64,000 nucleotides of DNA, taken from Parcubacteria group bacterium Gr01-1014_3 (lineage in GTDB: Bacteria > Patescibacteriota > Minisyncoccia > UBA6257 > WO2-44-18). Position numbers and translations under genes: made by a program. Each line of letters starts with the position of its first letter. The stretch's first letter is position 1. Shown one piece after another: positions 6,246-27,108 of this stretch. The notes beneath the pieces are model-generated. The model was not told the DNA's origin. It worked only from the letters and a program-made list of their open reading frames with translations, and made no database searches. Location: the NCBI GenBank assembly GCA_007376445.1, contig VMGF01000003.1, forward strand, positions 31,024 to 95,023, written 5' to 3'.

Positions 6246-7154
6246 TTAAACTTTCAAATATCTTCGCACCGCAATCGTGCTAGAAACTCCGCCAAGAAAA
6301 ATACCAAATAAAAGCTGATAGCCAAACAATATCGGTAAATTACCAAAGAAGTAATTTGTCAGATTCATCTCCGGAATGAACGCGCCGACATAAGGCGAGG
6401 CCAGCGAAACTATCGGCGCCGCGATCATCAAGCTAATTACCGCGGCAATAGCTCCGTAAATAATGCCGTTCACCAGATAAGGCCCATTGATATACATATT
6501 AGAGGAACCCACCAGACGCATAATGCCGATCTCTTCGCGGTTGGAATAGATAGCGAGGCGGATGCTGTTGAAAGTCACCAAGGCGGCGATTAGCGCCAAG
6601 AACATCGTGGCTACCAAGCCAGAGTTCTGGAAGGTATCGATCAGGCGCGCCAAGCGATCAATCGCCAGGCGGTTTTCTGTATAGCTAACCTTTTCAATAA
6701 TCGAAGCCAGATTTTCATTGTCCAAATATTCCACGATGTTGGCATACTGCCCAGGATCATTCGCCTTAACATTCAACGCTGCGAGCAAAGGGTTGGCCTG
6801 CAATTCCGCGAGAGCCTGGGAAACGGTCGGATCATCTTTGTGGTCGTTTTTAAATATCTCTAAGGCCTTTTCTTGAGAAATATATTCCACGCTTTTTACT
6901 TCGACGAGACTTTCCATCGCCCGCTCTAATTTCAAAATTTCATCCTCTTTAGCTACATCTTTAAAATAAACGCTGATATCAATCTTGTCCTGAATTGAAG
7001 TCACCGCCACGCGGGAAATGGCGCTGAAAATGATCAGTCCGTTAAAAACTATCAGAGCCAAGATTAAGACAGCGATGGTGGTGATCGAAAGCCAGCCATT
7101 GCGGCTGAAGCTTTGAAGTCCAAACTTAATTATTCTCGCGAGTGTAGTTGCCAT
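6246..7154 (-). CDS. ftsX: cell division permease FtsX
   Basis: 4-TM topology with periplasmic domain; follows ftsE. Confidence 0.85.
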   Translation of the reverse strand: MATTLARIIKFGLQSFSRNGWLSITTIAVLILALIVFNGLIIFSAISRVAVTSIQDKIDISVYFKDVAKEDEILKLERAMESLVEVKSVEYISQEKALEIFKNDHKDDPTVSQALAELQANPLLAALNVKANDPGQYANIVEYLDNENLASIIEKVSYTENRLAIDRLARLIDTFQNSGLVATMFLALIAALVTFNSIRLAIYSNREEIGIMRLVGSSNMYINGPYLVNGIIYGAIAAVISLMIAAPIVSLASPYVGAFIPEMNLTNYFFGNLPILFGYQLLFGIFLGGVSSTIAVRRYLKV

Positions 7155-7158
7155 ATCT

Positions 7159-7839
7159 TTAATCTAGTATATATCTCCCACCCTCTTCATCTTTAATAAT
7201 TTTACCATTATCCAGGGTAATCACGCGGCGGCGAATCTTGTTGATGATTTCTTTGCTATGTGTCGCTAAAACCACCGTGGTGCCAAGTTCATTTATTTTT
7301 AAAAGCAGATTCACGATCTCCCAGGTATTATGCGGGTCCAAATTGCCGGTCGGCTCGTCGGCGATGATCACATCCGGGCGATGCACCATGGCGCGGGCGA
7401 TCGCCACCCTCTGCTTCATGCCGCCGGAAAGTTCGTGCGGGAAGCTATGCTGTTTATCCTTTAGGCCAACCATATCCAATACCTGCGGGACCAGCTCTTC
7501 GATCTCGTGCTCCGGACAGCCATTAACTTCCATCGCGAAGGCCACGTTTTCATACGCCGTCCTGGTTGGAAGTAGTTTAAAATCCTGGAACACGATACCG
7601 ATCTTCCTCCGAAGATCCGGTAGCTCTCTCATGCTTAGTTTATTCACCTCGGCAGAGCCGAAAAGAACCCTGCCTTGATTCGGTTTTTCTTCGGCAATAA
7701 GGAGCTTTACGATCGTGGACTTACCGGCGCCGGACTTACCCACCAAAGAAACAAACTCGCCAGGCGCGACTTTAAAGGAAATGTCGTCCAAAATCATCGA
7801 ATTGCCGTATTTTTTGGTTACTCCGTGGAAAGCTATCAT
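7159..7839 (-). CDS. ftsE: cell division ATP-binding protein FtsE
   Basis: GKSGAGKST Walker A, LSGGMKQR signature, IIADEPTGNLD Walker B. Confidence 0.9.
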   Translation of the reverse strand: MIAFHGVTKKYGNSMILDDISFKVAPGEFVSLVGKSGAGKSTIVKLLIAEEKPNQGRVLFGSAEVNKLSMRELPDLRRKIGIVFQDFKLLPTRTAYENVAFAMEVNGCPEHEIEELVPQVLDMVGLKDKQHSFPHELSGGMKQRVAIARAMVHRPDVIIADEPTGNLDPHNTWEIVNLLLKINELGTTVVLATHSKEIINKIRRRVITLDNGKIIKDEEGGRYILD

Positions 7840-7882: not shown

Positions 7883-8293
7883 TTAAGCTACCGACGAATT
7901 CAAAATACGTCGATATTTAACTCCCTCTCTCGTAAAATATAGCAGAATTCCTAGCTTTAGACCAGCGCTTCGTAAATAAGTCAAAACCTGCTGAGTATGC
8001 ACATAACCAAACTTTTGAACGACTTTTAACTCCAAGAGAATTTTGTCATCTACAATAAAATCCGCAAAATACTTACCTATATTTTTAGCTTTGTATTCGA
8101 GCGGAATATAAACTTCCCGCTTAAATTCTAGGCCTTGTGTTTTCAATTCTTCAGCTAAAGCTCTTTGATAATCCTTTTCTGTAAATCCCCAACCTAATTC
8201 ATTAAAAACATCAAAAACAGCGCCTACAATTTTATAACTTAGCTCCGGTAAAATTACCTTATCAGCTTTTTCTATTTGCAATATTTTGTTCAT
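7883..8293 (-). CDS. GxxExxY family protein (PD-(D/E)XK nuclease-like)
   Basis: ELGWGFTEKDYQRAL carries the G-x-x-E-x-x-Y signature; paralog of 19019..19423. Confidence 0.8.
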   Translation of the reverse strand: MNKILQIEKADKVILPELSYKIVGAVFDVFNELGWGFTEKDYQRALAEELKTQGLEFKREVYIPLEYKAKNIGKYFADFIVDDKILLELKVVQKFGYVHTQQVLTYLRSAGLKLGILLYFTREGVKYRRILNSSVA

Positions 8294-8312: not shown

Positions 8313-9041
8313 TTACTCCAACTGTAGCTCTGCCTCCACAAACTTGTCGAGCTCTCCATCTAAAACCCGGTCCGGCTGGCGGTGCTCCACGTTTGTGCGG
8401 TGATCTTTGACCAGCTGATATGGATTCAGCACGTAAGATCGGATCTGATTCCCCCACTCCGGCTTTACTTTGGTGCGAAGCTCGGAAAGGGTTTGCTTCT
8501 GATTGGCGATCATCAACGCCAATAGCTTGGATTTCAAAAGCTGCATCGCCTTTTCCCGGTTCTGCGGCTGTGAACGCTCAGCCTGCGAAGCCGCGGCCAG
8601 GCCAGTCGGTAAATGAACAATGCGCATGGCCGTCTCGCGTTTATTTACATTCTGACCACCCGGCCCGCTGGAGCGCGACATTTCCAATTTCAAATCTTCC
8701 GGCGGGATCACGAGCTTACGATGTTCAATGTCCGGAAAGATCGGAACTATTTCCACCAGGGCAAACGAAGTATGGCGGAGTTTTTTGGAAGAAAATGGCG
8801 AAATTCGGACGAGCCGATGCACGCCCATTTCTTTTTTCAGCGTTCCATAGACAAATTCACCTTTTATTTCCATCGCGCGATCATCCACGATCGAAGTTTT
8901 CCAGCCCCGCTTTTCCGCGTACTTCAAATACATCTTAAAAAGCATATTCGCCCAATCCTTGGCGTCATCCCCGCCCACGCCGGCGTGAATAGTTAAGTGG
9001 ACTGGGCCGTGATCATATTTTCCTGTCAGGGGCTTAAACAT
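8313..9041 (-). CDS. prfB: peptide chain release factor 2 lacking N-terminal domain 1 (domains 2-4 only, 242 aa)
   Basis: SPF tripeptide (RISPFSS), GGQ motif (SGPGGQNVNK); aligns to E. coli RF2 from about residue 112 onward; ATG overlaps the stop of the upstream amidohydrolase (ATGTTTAA). Confidence 0.75.
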   Translation of the reverse strand: MFKPLTGKYDHGPVHLTIHAGVGGDDAKDWANMLFKMYLKYAEKRGWKTSIVDDRAMEIKGEFVYGTLKKEMGVHRLVRISPFSSKKLRHTSFALVEIVPIFPDIEHRKLVIPPEDLKLEMSRSSGPGGQNVNKRETAMRIVHLPTGLAAASQAERSQPQNREKAMQLLKSKLLALMIANQKQTLSELRTKVKPEWGNQIRSYVLNPYQLVKDHRTNVEHRQPDRVLDGELDKFVEAELQLE

Positions 9042-9852
9042 TGATTTTGAAAAGTTTCGCGGCGTTTTTATACATTACATATTCCATATCCGTCTTGGAA
9101 ATTCCCAGCTTTTTCACATATTTAATATATTCTTTCGGACCAGCGAGCGGCCAATCCGTGCCGAAAATAAGTTTACGGGGCGTCTGTGAATACGCGATCA
9201 GCTCCTTGATCTTCTGTATCGTCATTTTGCCATAAGGCGAGTTAAACCCGTCATGCAAAAACAAACCGGAAATATCGGCATAAACATTCGGATTCCTATA
9301 CAGAACTTCGGCGCAGTCCATCATCCAGGGATTCCCAAGATGCGCTATCACTATCTTTAGATTCGGAAAATCTACTGCCACCTCATCAACACCGAGCGGA
9401 TGCGCGTATTTCACTTTCGCGAAAGTCTTGTAGGCGAGCGTGTCTCCTGTATGGAAAATTACTGGTACGCCCAGTCGGTCGCACATTTCATAGATCGGTC
9501 GCGCGACCGAATCGCCTGGATAGAAATGCTGATAACCGAGGTAAAGTTTAACTCCGACGATCTTTTTCAGCCGGATCAAAACCTCCAGCCGATCCAAATC
9601 TTGCTTGGTGTATTCAGACACGTTCAAAGAACCAATCACATGCAGATTTGAAAGTTCTTCGGTTAATTTGATAAGCGTGTCCGTGGAGGGACCAGTGCCA
9701 TCCTCGCCTCGCCAATTCGCGATCACCAACGCGTGATCCACTTTATTCTTCTTCATCTCCGCTAAAAGAGCGCTTCTTATTTCTTCATAGGACTTTTTAG
9801 CGAACGGAGTATTTTCCAGCTTTGTTATGTGTGTGTGCGCGTCTATGATCAT
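9034..9852 (-). CDS. metal-dependent amidohydrolase (amidohydrolase-2 / TIM-barrel family)
   Basis: IDAHTH N-terminal metal-binding motif, HTGD, IAHLG motifs. Confidence 0.65.
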   Translation of the reverse strand: MIIDAHTHITKLENTPFAKKSYEEIRSALLAEMKKNKVDHALVIANWRGEDGTGPSTDTLIKLTEELSNLHVIGSLNVSEYTKQDLDRLEVLIRLKKIVGVKLYLGYQHFYPGDSVARPIYEMCDRLGVPVIFHTGDTLAYKTFAKVKYAHPLGVDEVAVDFPNLKIVIAHLGNPWMMDCAEVLYRNPNVYADISGLFLHDGFNSPYGKMTIQKIKELIAYSQTPRKLIFGTDWPLAGPKEYIKYVKKLGISKTDMEYVMYKNAAKLFKINV

Positions 9853-9854
9853 GG

Positions 9855-9927
9855 AGCCACCTCCCGGAATCGAACCGGGGACCTTTGCTTTACGAAAGCA
9901 CTGCTCTACCAGCTGAGCTAAGGTGGC
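9855..9927 (-). tRNA. tRNA-Thr (anticodon CGT), copy 1
   Basis: Manual cloverleaf on minus strand: GCCACCT...AGCTGGTAGAGC...loop TTCGTAA...TTCGATT...AGGTGGC; CCA may be encoded (9852-9854). Confidence 0.7.
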
Positions 9928-9934
9928 TTTGACG

Positions 9935-9966
9935 TTATATTATAACATTTCCCGAGTTTTTCCAAA
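9935..9966 (-). promoter_or_regulatory. sigma70-like promoter for tRNA-Thr copy 1 (TTGGAA -35, extended TGTTATAAT -10); duplicated at 10236-10280
   Basis: Minus strand reads TTGGAAaaactcgggaaatgtTATAAT 8 nt before the tRNA 5' end. Confidence 0.55.
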
Positions 9967-10075
9967 GAAAATAAGAGCAGGTGACGAGAATCGTCCGGTC
10001 ATACGACCGGACAGCCCAGTCGGATGACTGGGCGAACTCACGTCTCTACTTTACCCCGCACCTTTTCTCGATTAG

Positions 10076-10147
10076 AGCCAGAGAGAGGAGTCGAACCTCC
10101 AACCCCTCCCTTACGAAGGGATTGCTCTGCCATTGAGCTACTCTGGC
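10076..10147 (-). tRNA. tRNA-Thr-like (anticodon CGT), copy 2, flanked by 35-bp inverted repeats
   Basis: GCCAGAG..GCTCAATGGCAGAGC..loop TTCGTAA..GGAGGTTCGACTCCTCT..CTCTGGC; 27-43 mismatch. Confidence 0.6.
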
Positions 10148-10181
10148 AAATTTTATACGTGATCGAGAAAAGGTGCGGGGT

Positions 10182-10218
10182 TTACGAAAGTAGTGTTCTA
10201 CCACTGAACTATATCGGC
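10182..10218 (-). pseudogene. tRNA 5'-half fragment (acceptor, D-arm, anticodon stem-loop CTACT-TTCGTAA), no 3' half
   Basis: GCCGATATAGTTCAGTGGTAGAACACTACTTTCGTAAA then runs into inverted-repeat sequence; no complementary 3' acceptor nearby. Confidence 0.45.
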
Positions 10219-10284
10219 GTCTCTCTTTATTTAAATACTAGGTCATATTATAACATTTTGCGGATTTTTTCAAAGAAAATAATG

Positions 10285-10356
10285 AGCGGATAACGGGAGT
10301 CGAACCCGTGTCTGATCCTTGGGAAGGATCCATAATAGCCGTTATACGATACCCGC
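10285..10356 (-). tRNA. tRNA-Gly (anticodon CCC)
   Basis: GCGGGTA..GTATAACGGCTATTAT..GGATCC-TTCCCAA..ACGGGTTCGACTCCCGT..TATCCGC. Confidence 0.75.
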
Positions 10357-21875: not shown

Positions 21876-22796
21876 TCACTGCCTTACTAACTTTAAAACT
21901 CCGCCGCTCCAACTCGAACCCATCGTCCCCTTCTCCAGGGTAGTGAAGATCTGCGCCCCCGCGGATTTGAGACGAGCGAGCGCTGCCGGCGTGGGGTGGC
22001 CGTAAGTATTTTTGCCAACTTCGATGATCGCGGCCTTCGGTTTTACCGCGGCTAAAAATTCCGCGCCGCTGGAAAATCGAGAACCGTGATGCCCGACCTT
22101 CAAAATATCCGCCGATAGATCGTATCTTTTCATCAACTCGTTTTCGACATTAAAGCCAATATCTGCCGTAAATAAGATCTTGAAGTTCTTGTCGCGAAGC
22201 ATAGTCACCAAGCTGGTGTCGTTTAGCTCGCTACTTAATAGATCACCGCTATTCGGAGAAAGAATGCCTAAGGCCGTATCCTCGTGAATTATCCGATCTT
22301 CCTCCGCTAATTGAATATACGGAACGCCCCGATTCTGAAGCTCGTTGATTAGAGTCTGATAAGCTCCGGCAGTGCCTTTTCTGCCATTCCCAATAAACGC
22401 TCCGACTTCATAATTTTTCAGCACATCAATAAACCCTCCGAAGTGGTCTAACTGGGGATGGGTCATCAAAAGCATATCGATATACCGGTCCTGGGGCGGT
22501 AAGACTTTGGCCAGCGCCGTTAACACTTTGCCATCCGGATTCCCAGCATCGATCAATAACTTCGGGCCACCAGGAAAAATAATCAGCTGGCTATCCCCTT
22601 GCCCGACATCCAGAAAATAAATTCTGGCACTATCACGCGTGATAGTGCTTGCTTGGATAATCTGATACCAGACAATTCCGTCCAGCAATAATAACGCCGC
22701 TACAATATATAAAACCCAGTTAGACTTTTTTGCTTTGGAATTTTTGTTCAGCATAATAGACAAGTCCAATAAGCGCGGCCCAATAAAGCACGCCAT
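21876..22796 (-). CDS. comEC: ComEC C-terminal metallo-beta-lactamase domain protein (split from N-terminal part)
   Basis: HxHxDH-type MBL motifs (HPQLDH, HHGSR); likely starts at internal Met near 22754. Confidence 0.7.
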   Translation of the reverse strand: MACFIGPRLLDLSIMLNKNSKAKKSNWVLYIVAALLLLDGIVWYQIIQASTITRDSARIYFLDVGQGDSQLIIFPGGPKLLIDAGNPDGKVLTALAKVLPPQDRYIDMLLMTHPQLDHFGGFIDVLKNYEVGAFIGNGRKGTAGAYQTLINELQNRGVPYIQLAEEDRIIHEDTALGILSPNSGDLLSSELNDTSLVTMLRDKNFKILFTADIGFNVENELMKRYDLSADILKVGHHGSRFSSGAEFLAAVKPKAAIIEVGKNTYGHPTPAALARLKSAGAQIFTTLEKGTMGSSWSGGVLKLVRQ

Positions 22797-24153
22797 AGAA
22801 CCAATTAAAGTTCACTACTTCGAATACTCCGCCTAGCTTAGAAAACCAGTCGATGACCGTCAACTCGTAAGTAAGGAGTATGCTGACCAGCCAAGCTAAC
22901 GCCTGCGCCAACCAGCCAGAGATCACGGCCGCGAAAGCCACCATAAATCCAAAAAACATCGTGAGCGGTATGGCGGAAAGTAAAAGCATATTGGTCAACA
23001 AACCCATCGCGGAAACTGTGCCGAATGAACTTAATAAAATCGGGAGCACGGCCAGCTGCGCGGAAAGGGTGGCAAAAAGATTCTGCCGCCAGTTCAGGAT
23101 TCCCGGCTCCTCTTTCGCGCGGACAAGCTTTCGTAATGCCGGAGCCAGATAAACGATTCCTAAAAGCGCAGCGAAGGAAAGCTGGAAGCCAATATCCCAC
23201 ACCAACACTCTCGGATTCGCGAGCACCATCAGGAGCGCGGCAAGCGCGAGAGCGTTCCGGAAATTGTGGATCCGCCCGATCTGGTTCGCGAGTAAAAGCA
23301 AAGAAGCCATGATCGCCGCCCGCACCACCGAGGCTTCGGCTCCCGTCATCACCACGAAGCCAAGAATGATCACCACGGTCAGGACGAAAAACGTCCGCCG
23401 CGAGACCCGGCCCGCTAGAGCTAGGCCAATAGCGTCAATAATAATCGCCACGTTGTACCCGGAGAGCGCGACTAAATGAGAAGTGCCAGTCAAACTCAAC
23501 TTTTCCCGGAATTCTTTGGTGAAGCCGGAGGTATCGCCCAGAATTAACCCGGAAAGAAAAGCGGCCCGCTCTGGCGAGAGGACTTTATAAAATGAATCCC
23601 GCACAAAATCCCGTATCGAAAACAATCCCCGCTTCAGCCAAAAACCTTCATTCTCCCCGGTTGGCGTAATTTTCGGATTCCGCATTCGCGCCACAATGCC
23701 ATTTTTCAGATAGGAATTTTTATATTCCTCCGGAATCTCTTCTACCTTGCCATCAATTTTCAAAACATCGCCATATTTATATGCCGGGTATTTCGAGGTG
23801 AATATTTTAAGCCTGCCGTTATATGACTCGCGAATCGCCATAATTAACTCCTGACTCTCCATTCCCTGCTCGGCTTTGGCCACAAACCCGGTCAGTTCCG
23901 CCTTTTGTCCGACCGGTAAATTACTGGACAGGCGGAACTGGTCGACGATGACAACATGACCATAACCAATGACCAGAAAAATGCTTAATGCCGCCATCCA
24001 ATAACGTCCCAGAAGTAAAAACAGCGCGCCCAGTAAAAGCGTGATTCCGATAATTATCCAGAACCTACTTCCCCATTCTTGAAACACGCTTGCCAGAAAT
24101 ACCCCAATCAAAAATAAGCTGGAGGAATAGAAAAATATAGAGCCGGGTTTCAT
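22720..24153 (-). CDS. comEC: ComEC N-terminal part (DUF4131 + competence/Rec2 membrane domain)
   Basis: Polytopic membrane domain typical of ComEC; overlaps the downstream MBL ORF in a different frame. Confidence 0.7.
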   Translation of the reverse strand: MKPGSIFFYSSSLFLIGVFLASVFQEWGSRFWIIIGITLLLGALFLLLGRYWMAALSIFLVIGYGHVVIVDQFRLSSNLPVGQKAELTGFVAKAEQGMESQELIMAIRESYNGRLKIFTSKYPAYKYGDVLKIDGKVEEIPEEYKNSYLKNGIVARMRNPKITPTGENEGFWLKRGLFSIRDFVRDSFYKVLSPERAAFLSGLILGDTSGFTKEFREKLSLTGTSHLVALSGYNVAIIIDAIGLALAGRVSRRTFFVLTVVIILGFVVMTGAEASVVRAAIMASLLLLANQIGRIHNFRNALALAALLMVLANPRVLVWDIGFQLSFAALLGIVYLAPALRKLVRAKEEPGILNWRQNLFATLSAQLAVLPILLSSFGTVSAMGLLTNMLLLSAIPLTMFFGFMVAFAAVISGWLAQALAWLVSILLTYELTVIDWFSKLGGVFEVVNFNWFYGVLYWAALIGLVYYAEQKFQSKKV

Positions 24154-26590: not shown

Positions 26591-26848
26591 TTATTGGGGC
26601 GGTTCGTGTTGCGTGGCACCAGGAGAGCCCACTTCTGGCTTTCTCTGAATACGTTCTTTCTCGTCTTGCCTACAGAGATCAATCATGACTAATCCGGTAA
26701 CTGGCCCGAATGCAGTCATTAATATCAAAAGCACAAATGACCCTATTGGTTGTTGTCGGAAGGAAGCATGCAGATAACGGCAAAGCCTTCCGGCACACCA
26801 TGCGCCAGTCCACAGCCACCAGGCCAGGGAAATGTAGAGGTAGATCAT
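26591..26848 (-). CDS. small membrane protein
   Basis: ORF, 2 TM; terminator hairpin CCGCCCC-GTTATT-GGGGCGG at its end. Confidence 0.35.
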   Translation of the reverse strand: MIYLYISLAWWLWTGAWCAGRLCRYLHASFRQQPIGSFVLLILMTAFGPVTGLVMIDLCRQDEKERIQRKPEVGSPGATQHEPPQ

Positions 26849-27108
26849 TGTTCCTTCGTGTTCTCGTTGAATGGCCAGATCTTTTTTATGTCCATCACAA
26901 TCAGAAACCAGAAAAGTGACATAATCGCGGCCTGGAGAGTCGAGCCTGTTTGATTATCCCAACGACACTCTAAGCCAAAGCCGACCCGCTTAGCCAGCTC
27001 ATCCTGTTGTTTATAATCGAATCCGATAAGATAAACCGCCATCAGGAAAAAGTTGGTGGTGTAGCCCCACATGAGCCACCACAGCGACTCTGACCAATCC
27101 CAGCCCAT
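26845..27108 (-). CDS. small membrane protein (Trp-rich)
   Basis: ORF, 2 TM, overlapping stop/start with downstream gene. Confidence 0.35.
   Translation of the reverse strand: MGWDWSESLWWLMWGYTTNFFLMAVYLIGFDYKQQDELAKRVGFGLECRWDNQTGSTLQAAIMSLFWFLIVMDIKKIWPFNENTKEQ

Follow-up and report, generated by a model that had tools for sequence, protein, structure and literature searches.

A release factor 2 without domain 1 in a Parcubacteria genome and in related Patescibacteria

In a 64,000-nucleotide (nt) stretch of DNA from Parcubacteria group bacterium Gr01-1014_3 (VMGF01000003.1, positions 31,024-95,023; the window), which belongs to a 142-kb contig of an incomplete metagenome-assembled genome (MAG), we found that prfB encodes a release factor 2 (RF2) of 242 amino acids (aa) made up of the decoding and catalytic domains, with no domain 1. 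We consider it probable (about 0.8) that this short protein is the functional, RF3-independent housekeeping RF2 of the organism, its activity at UGA and UAA, its independence of RF3, its being the only RF2 and its mode of expression being the parts of this reading that we infer. The gene keeps both functional motifs, lies in the chromosomal slot that full-length prfB fills in sister lineages, and is conserved throughout a clade of related genomes.

The short RF2 and its place among class-I release factors

The features that define the protein are as follows.

8313..9041, minus strand: prfB orthologue, RF2 of 242 aa with domains 2, 3 and 4 only, stop codon TAA
8793-8801, minus strand: SPF tripeptide (S81 P82 F83), the RF2-type stop-codon 'anticodon' motif, read from the sequence
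8652-8660, minus strand: GGQ motif (G128 G129 Q130), peptidyl-tRNA hydrolysis, read from the sequence

Profile searches with this open reading frame (ORF) recovered the C-terminal half of the PCRF domain (PF03462, profile positions 95-194 of 194, E 1e-31) and the entire RF-1 domain (PF00472, E 2e-34). Among the NCBIfam profiles, prfB (TIGR00020) matched best, over positions 109-352 of 353 and with 315 bits, while the rival profiles prfA, prfH and ArfB reached 189, 73.5 and 47 bits, respectively. The TIGR00020 score stays below the profile cut-off of 370 bits because the N-terminus is absent, and with it 108 profile positions' worth of score. Alignment with solved structures paired residues 5-240 with residues 119-362 of both E. 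coli RF2 (1gqe) and B. subtilis RF2, which makes residue 1 equivalent to about residue 115 of E. coli RF2, where domain 1 gives way to domain 2; the first-pass annotation, which had rightly recognised a 242-aa prfB ORF carrying SPF and GGQ, put this point close by, at about residue 112. The top solved relatives were the RF2 chains of B. subtilis, T. thermophilus and E. coli, and an AlphaFold model of the short protein (mean predicted local distance difference test score, pLDDT, 84.6) matched the folds of 1gqe and 2ihr, with a template modelling (TM) score of 0.85 on the compact crystal form of E. coli RF2, 1gqe. Both SPF and GGQ were without variation in two alignments of relatives (A1 and A2; 48 aligned relatives for SPF). 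As a separate observation, the domain-2 hairpin at residues ~50-57 (SIVDDRAMEIKG) lacks 10 residues relative to the RF2 of B. subtilis or E. coli, a shortening that is common to the nearest full-length Patescibacteria RF2 (P0121, see below).

Domain 1 and the programmed frameshift are both missing, as had been proposed from the sequence at first sight. A tblastn search of the window yielded nothing resembling domain 1, and a hidden Markov model (HMM) of domain 1, built from 82 full-length relatives and run over all six frames of the window, gave a best match of E = 6, the positive controls giving E 1e-22 to 1e-30. Likewise, the window holds no ORF1 / CTTTGA frameshift site, a feature that many but not all prfB genes have. 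Measured against the RF2 family, then, the ORF has domains 2-4, SPF, GGQ and orthology, and is without domain 1, a score above the TIGR00020 cut-off and the frameshift site. It does not belong to RF1, since it carries SPF and not PxT and scores higher with prfB than with prfA.

Comparison with known factors is consistent with this placement. With canonical RF2 (TIGR00020; E. coli 1gqe, B. subtilis 6szs) the short protein has in common domains 2-4, SPF, GGQ, 43-45% identity over about residues 119-362 and the compact fold, but it is without the ~110-aa helical domain 1 and without the ORF1 / CUU UGA C +1 frameshift. PrfH (RF-H; TIGR03072; PDB 9mor) is likewise a natural class-I release factor homologue without domain 1 and translationally coupled to an upstream gene; PrfH, however, has an altered decoding motif and always occurs with rtcB, whereas the short RF2 keeps SPF and has no rtcB neighbour. 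Its PrfH score lies far below the cut-off of 166.65 bits, the gene upstream is Amidohydro_2, a tRNA or something unrelated, and the sequence of the PrfH structure aligned to it with 54 bits as against 200-212 bits for RF2 structures. ArfB / ICT1-type rescue factors share the GGQ domain but are stand-alone GGQ proteins of about 140 aa with a C-terminal tail and without decoding domains 2 and 4, and only residues 108-141 of the short RF2 match ArfB, at a score well under the cut-off of 100 bits. On its sequence, the window protein is best described as a truncated RF2 orthologue, not as a member of PrfH or ArfB.

Natural class-I homologues without domain 1 such as PrfH and ArfB are accessory factors, and the short ORF could accordingly be an accessory RF2-like paralogue (a rescue or specialised factor of PrfH or ArfB type) in a genome with a full-length prfB elsewhere, all the more as our search was confined to the window and many members of the family are named merely 'release factor-like protein' at NCBI. 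We regard this as unlikely, chiefly on positional grounds. Among representatives of 50%-identity clusters the nearest is P0121, a 347-aa RF2 that is full length, includes domain 1 and shows 63% identity to the window RF2; its relatives are from Wolfebacteria, Liptonbacteria and Paceibacterota, with called lengths of 287-370 aa. Full-length RF2 genes (P0121, P0276, P0295, P0365 and P0382) fill the same tRNA-Thr(CGU)-prfB-ftsE-ftsX slot as the short gene, with or without the frameshift, and ARAGORN analysis of 52 loci gave the order tRNA-Gly(CCC) - tRNA-Thr(CGU) - prfB - ftsE - ftsX - tRNA-Gln whatever the form of RF2, with the tRNA-Thr synteny holding in ~45 of the 52; the prfB-ftsE-ftsX neighbourhood thus also belongs to the full-length relatives. 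A neighbour-joining (NJ) tree nested the short genes among full-length Patescibacteria RF2, and no second RF2 gene was seen within 10 kb at any locus of the 80 species genomes surveyed (see below). This positional orthology is the main argument for reading the short gene as the RF2 of the organism rather than as an additional paralogue, and on it the gene would be the sole prfB of this genome.

The short form is not peculiar to this assembly. The window protein is 100% identical to TSC88839.1 (Parcubacteria group bacterium Gr01-1014_3), and among the best 120 relatives taken from a search of 5.8 billion proteins, 116 are 239-255 aa long, are 70-96% identical to it and share the N-terminus MFKPLTGKYD. 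The other four were called longer (261, 272 and 306 aa among these), the 306-aa one running into a translated tRNA gene, and are likely mis-called starts. In total, more than 100 sequence clusters contain the 241-242-aa RF2 with identical N-terminus, as do at least 17 GTDB species genomes, so that what had been noticed as a single natural RF2 without domain 1 proved to be a family. The ratio of nonsynonymous to synonymous substitution rates (dN/dS) against relatives of 94-96% identity is 0.03, and the short RF2 is under strong purifying selection.

These comparisons also bear on whether the short ORF is an artefact of faulty assembly, of a frameshift error or of a start called in the wrong place. 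The gene comes from a single MAG contig, and prfB is often mis-called owing to its programmed frameshift, as the spread of called lengths among P0121 relatives illustrates. Such an error is nevertheless hardly credible here. The same gene appears in independent assemblies from many studies; the DNA upstream of it is taken up by another gene, by a tRNA or by coding sequence of the opposite strand, including a DUF1653 gene, a small opposite-strand ORF, an unrelated 638-aa gene and an opposite-strand ileS ~165 nt away; and the domain-1 HMM, which matched upstream of full-length RF2 genes with E 1e-14 to 1e-34, gave no match in any frame upstream of any short RF2 gene, nor within 10 kb. An assembly or frame error at 9030-9050, a concern raised in the first-pass annotation, is excluded by the recurrence of the same N-terminus behind neighbours that differ or lie on the opposite strand.

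Two further observations concern called RF2 lengths. In P0081 and P0063 and in the ORF1 strings of L033, L049 and L069, the RF2 'N-terminal extensions' read as translated upstream tRNA-Thr (peptides like VAEHYFRKVETWVRFP), and extensions of the P0081/P0063 type are, judging by these peptides, gene-calling artefacts. In a look at the clusters of other short RF2-like representatives (P0165 and P0172 among them), one Chloroflexota cluster had called lengths of 233-314 aa, a spread that most likely reflects frameshift mis-calls.

Graded loss of domain 1 and stop-codon use

When one genome per GTDB species was scanned, 80 loci were returned and classified by scripts into four RF2 states. These are listed below with the share of TGA among stop codons, counted on a crude set of ORFs of at least 100 aa, first over all loci and then over the subset of loci at 40-50% guanine-plus-cytosine (GC) content, which served as the GC-matched comparison.

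Full length with +1 frameshift: 31 loci; ORF1 ends in RRLGGRL and stops at CTT TGA C, with a G-rich, Shine-Dalgarno-like stretch before it and domain 1 in the +1 frame; TGA 25.5% (126/494) over all loci, 26.6% at 40-50% GC
Full length in one frame, no frameshift: about 5 loci (L008, L011, L034, L051, L064); TGA about 10% over all loci; one locus in the GC-matched subset, not compared
N-terminal remnant of ~42 aa: 29 loci, Nomurabacteria-like; E. coli residues ~25-63, a helix with a PDFW motif; TGA 13.2% (56/424) over all loci, 12.2% at 40-50% GC
No domain 1: 21 loci including the window; Harrisonbacteria, Jorgensenbacteria and unnamed Paceibacterota; TGA 11.7% (38/324) over all loci, 12.9% at 40-50% GC

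The remnant RF2 (L038, L043, L045, L047-L050, L054, L057, L059, L062, L068, L069, L071-L075, L077, L080-L088 and L090) begins where the post-frameshift frame would begin and has no frameshift site. The ORF1 / CTTTGA site was found in none of the short or partial RF2 loci and is present in the 31 full-length relatives, and its presence in so many related species suggests that full length with frameshift is the ancestral state. The NJ tree, built on the C-terminal region that all forms have in common, puts the fully truncated RF2 genes in one clade and the remnant genes in a separate one, each sister to full-length genes, which means that domain 1 was reduced at least twice. The truncation is thus clade-wide and accompanied by a second clade with partial loss, a broader picture than the single gene of the first-pass annotation. 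With four RF2 states in one syntenic locus, the loss of an autoregulatory frameshift and of a protein domain can be followed step by step, which is seldom possible, and the series ties this loss to stop-codon use in a radiation that includes lineages with reassigned UGA.

In lineages without the frameshift, UGA stops are about half as frequent as in frameshift-bearing relatives (12-13% vs 26%), while the TAG share is 23-32% in every GC-matched group. The window itself (47% GC) is more extreme, with 50 TAA, 19 TAG and 3 TGA among 72 ORFs of at least 80 aa, and a single TGA among the 64 ORFs of at least 100 aa; TAG is far commoner than TGA here, the reverse of what most bacteria show. One of the TGA codons lies in an ATGA gene overlap (26845-27108), and another is followed by a second stop (37360-37965). 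UGA therefore remains a stop codon in the window but is strongly depleted, so that the statement that this genome still uses UGA stops holds as to use and needs correcting as to extent, only 1-3 of 64-72 genes being concerned. Reassignment of UGA was considered and rejected, as the three TGA-terminated ORFs end sensibly and a gene gap at 21.4-22.7 kb is an artefact of the overlap filter.

Such rarity of UGA, together with the halved use in relatives, would fit a decaying RF2, a gene under relaxed selection in a lineage that is abandoning UGA as a stop on the way to reassignment as in Gracilibacteria and Absconditabacteria. We think this quite unlikely: the dN/dS is that of a constrained gene, none of the catalytic and decoding motifs varies across a deep clade, about 12-17% of the genes of other short-RF2 genomes still stop at UGA, RF2 reads UAA too, and no window gene is interrupted by an in-frame TGA.

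Several points weigh against the short ORF being the functional housekeeping RF2. Its TIGR00020 score is under the NCBI equivalog cut-off. The 64 kb covered are part of a 142-kb contig, the MAG itself is incomplete, and a second prfB could formally lie elsewhere. In the window, no prfA, prfC or split-off domain 1 was found by tblastn with the ORF, by tblastn with an approximate E. coli RF2 or by Pfam on the ten longest ORFs. With UGA ending so few genes of the window, RF2 could contribute little here. The difference in stop use between frameshift-bearing and fully truncated groups (GC-matched; Fisher p = 1e-4, or p = 0.017 without the window) counts genes that are phylogenetically non-independent, and it tracks the loss of the frameshift at least as well as that of domain 1.

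Release factor 1 and factor recycling

A truncated RF1 was found in a relative whose RF2 is full length with frameshift, represented by a complete 888-kb chromosome (L025, OY970382.1).

L025 4313-5044, minus strand: RF1 of 243 aa with a PAT motif and GGQ, ~5 kb from RF2

This was the only locus with RF1 within 10 kb of RF2. The protein matches the prfA profile over positions 112-349 of 361 with 351-363 bits, and a divergent response-regulator gene starts 30 nt upstream of it. Its best 120 relatives (P0390-P0509) are 231-253 aa long, all but one partial sequence being 239-253 aa; they begin MTTNKIILEIRAGAGGDEA and come from contigs of up to 899 kb. The truncation point (MTTNKIILEIRAGAGGDEA...) and the bacterial group are those of the short RF2, but these proteins carry the PxT motif and reach 363 bits with the prfA profile, and the short RF1 occurs even in a genome, L025, that retains a full-length RF2 with the frameshift. 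From these sequences, RF1 without domain 1 seems to be the usual form in Minisyncoccia / Paceibacterota, also in the presence of a full-length RF2, and the short RF2 seems to be a further step taken in one clade beyond the short RF1. By analogy, the organism of the window would have an RF1 without domain 1 as well.

We propose that one Paceibacteria-type Patescibacteria clade (Harrisonbacteria, Jorgensenbacteria and relatives) deleted ~110 codons of domain 1 and that the deletion also took the ORF1 / CUU-UGA +1 frameshift site, which autoregulates RF2 in related lineages. What remained would be domains 2 and 4, which form the decoding superdomain and carry SPF, together with the catalytic domain 3, which carries GGQ. 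Such a core would occupy the A site at UGA and UAA and release the peptide from its tRNA by hydrolysis in the normal way, and RF2 expression would have been freed from frameshift feedback. In class-I release factors, contact with the L11 / L7-L12 stalk and with RF3 is made through domain 1. The short RF2 would make neither contact, and the factor would consequently leave the ribosome spontaneously or through the action of RRF and EF-G. The only translational GTPase found in the window is LepA (Pfam on the ten longest ORFs).

Such a core has precedents in the laboratory. Baranov et al. 2006 (PMC1586002), in their account of Mora et al. 2003, state that E. coli RF1 and RF2 truncated at the N-terminus retain their codon specificity and release activity in vitro, fail to stimulate nucleotide exchange on RF3 and sustain no more than slow growth; RF3 itself is non-essential and missing from small genomes (Baranov et al. 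2006). As described there, the engineered truncations (Mora, Zavialov, Ehrenberg, Buckingham 2003) have the same architecture as the short RF2, domain 1 alone having been removed, but they are laboratory constructs, whereas the short RF2 is natural, conserved across a clade and under strong purifying selection. In the literature searched, we came across no account of a truncated RF1 or RF2 from the candidate phyla radiation / Patescibacteria, nor do Burroughs and Aravind 2019 (PMC6514570) mention such truncated factors.

Until now, engineered E. coli truncations have been the basis for regarding domain 1 as dispensable. A natural, strongly conserved RF2 (in relatives, RF1) without it would mean that a large group of small-genome bacteria terminates translation on a minimal decoding-plus-catalysis core, and it would make the short factors ready-made proteins for studies of RF3-independent recycling. 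Taking RF1 and RF2 together, we hold it slightly better than an even bet that Paceibacteria-type Patescibacteria terminate with an RF1 lacking domain 1; that RF2 has in addition been truncated partly (~42 aa left) or wholly in two independent clades, leaving window-like organisms without any class-I release factor domain 1; and that autoregulation has been lost there, with UGA stops halved and prfB turned into a leaderless-like message fused to the tRNA-Thr transcript. If this class-wide loss is real, termination and factor recycling would be fully independent of RF3 and of contact with the stalk. In the databases, the 243-aa RF1 appears only as 'PCRF domain-containing protein' or 'peptide chain release factor 1', and because genes that fall under the NCBI prfB and prfA cut-offs are labelled 'release factor-like' or 'PCRF domain-containing', surveys may wrongly score RF1 or RF2 as absent in Patescibacteria.

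Locus, neighbours and expression

The neighbourhood of the short RF2 in the window is as follows.

9034..9852, minus strand: Amidohydro_2 gene, 272 aa (PF04909, E 1e-35), between tRNA-Thr and prfB
9034..9041, minus strand: ATGTTTAA, 8-nt overlap of the RF2 start with the amidohydrolase stop
9852..9927, minus strand: tRNA-Thr(CGU), conserved neighbour 5' of prfB; its last base is the A of the amidohydrolase ATG
9934..9974, minus strand: putative promoter-like box TTGGAAAAA ... TGTTATAAT, upstream of tRNA-Thr, repeated at 10242-10282
7883..8293, minus strand: GxxExxY / PD-(D/E)XK_3 gene between prfB and ftsE, in this genome only and absent from related loci
7159-7839, minus strand: ftsE, conserved downstream partner of prfB
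6246-7154, minus strand: ftsX, conserved downstream partner of prfB

The RF2 ATG (9041-9039) sits within the amidohydrolase end ATC AAT GTT TAA, and no Shine-Dalgarno-like sequence was seen upstream of it in the window. The overlap of the RF2 start with the amidohydrolase TAA is therefore as first described, and in the window RF2 may well be translated by coupling to this inserted gene; as a general feature of short RF2, however, coupling did not stand up. The amidohydrolase at prfB is confined to the window and its closest relatives (L092-L095, RF2 94-96% identical), is absent in L001-L023, and in L092-L095 stands in the order amidohydrolase-GNAT-RF2-ftsE, with an overlap of the same kind. 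Because the amidohydrolase is inserted, and relatives have either this GNAT gene in between or an ATG straight after tRNA-Thr, the coupling is local history and not mechanism. Compared with L092-L095, the gene orders indicate that the window has lost the GNAT gene and gained the GxxExxY gene.

In seven short-RF2 loci (L005 9919-10003, L013, L014, L016, L020, L021 and L023), only 2-10 nt separate the 3' end of tRNA-Thr(CGU) from the RF2 ATG, too few to accommodate a Shine-Dalgarno sequence. Such tRNA-adjacent starts suggest that tRNA and mRNA are co-transcribed and that translation is leaderless-like, a layout that recalls the tRNA punctuation of mitochondria; translation in these relatives would begin at this ATG. 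The promoter-like box upstream of tRNA-Thr is conserved among the window, L005 and L013, and its copy at 10273-10245 passes a consensus scan. No terminator-like site was found in the window between the amidohydrolase, RF2, the GxxExxY gene, ftsE and ftsX. On this arrangement, the promoter of the neighbouring tRNA-Thr(CGU) appears to drive transcription of the short RF2 gene.

Upstream of tRNA-Thr, the minus strand of the window at 9928-10290 has an unusual layout. A second tRNA-Thr(CGU) copy (10075-10147) is flanked by perfect 20-nt inverted repeat arms (10053-10072 and 10162-10181) and lies inside a third tRNA-Thr-like sequence, at the place of its anticodon loop; this third sequence is degenerate and has a ~40-nt insertion in its T loop; the 41-nt promoter-like sequence forms the direct repeat at 9934-9974 and 10242-10282. 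This arrangement is not conserved in L005 or L013.

Elsewhere in the window, two long ORFs in different frames of the minus strand (21876-22796 and 22720-24153) overlap by 77 nt. They look like a large, ComEC-like membrane protein, with a 306-aa ORF resembling the metallo-beta-lactamase part, and could be either a split or frameshifted comEC or two genuine genes.
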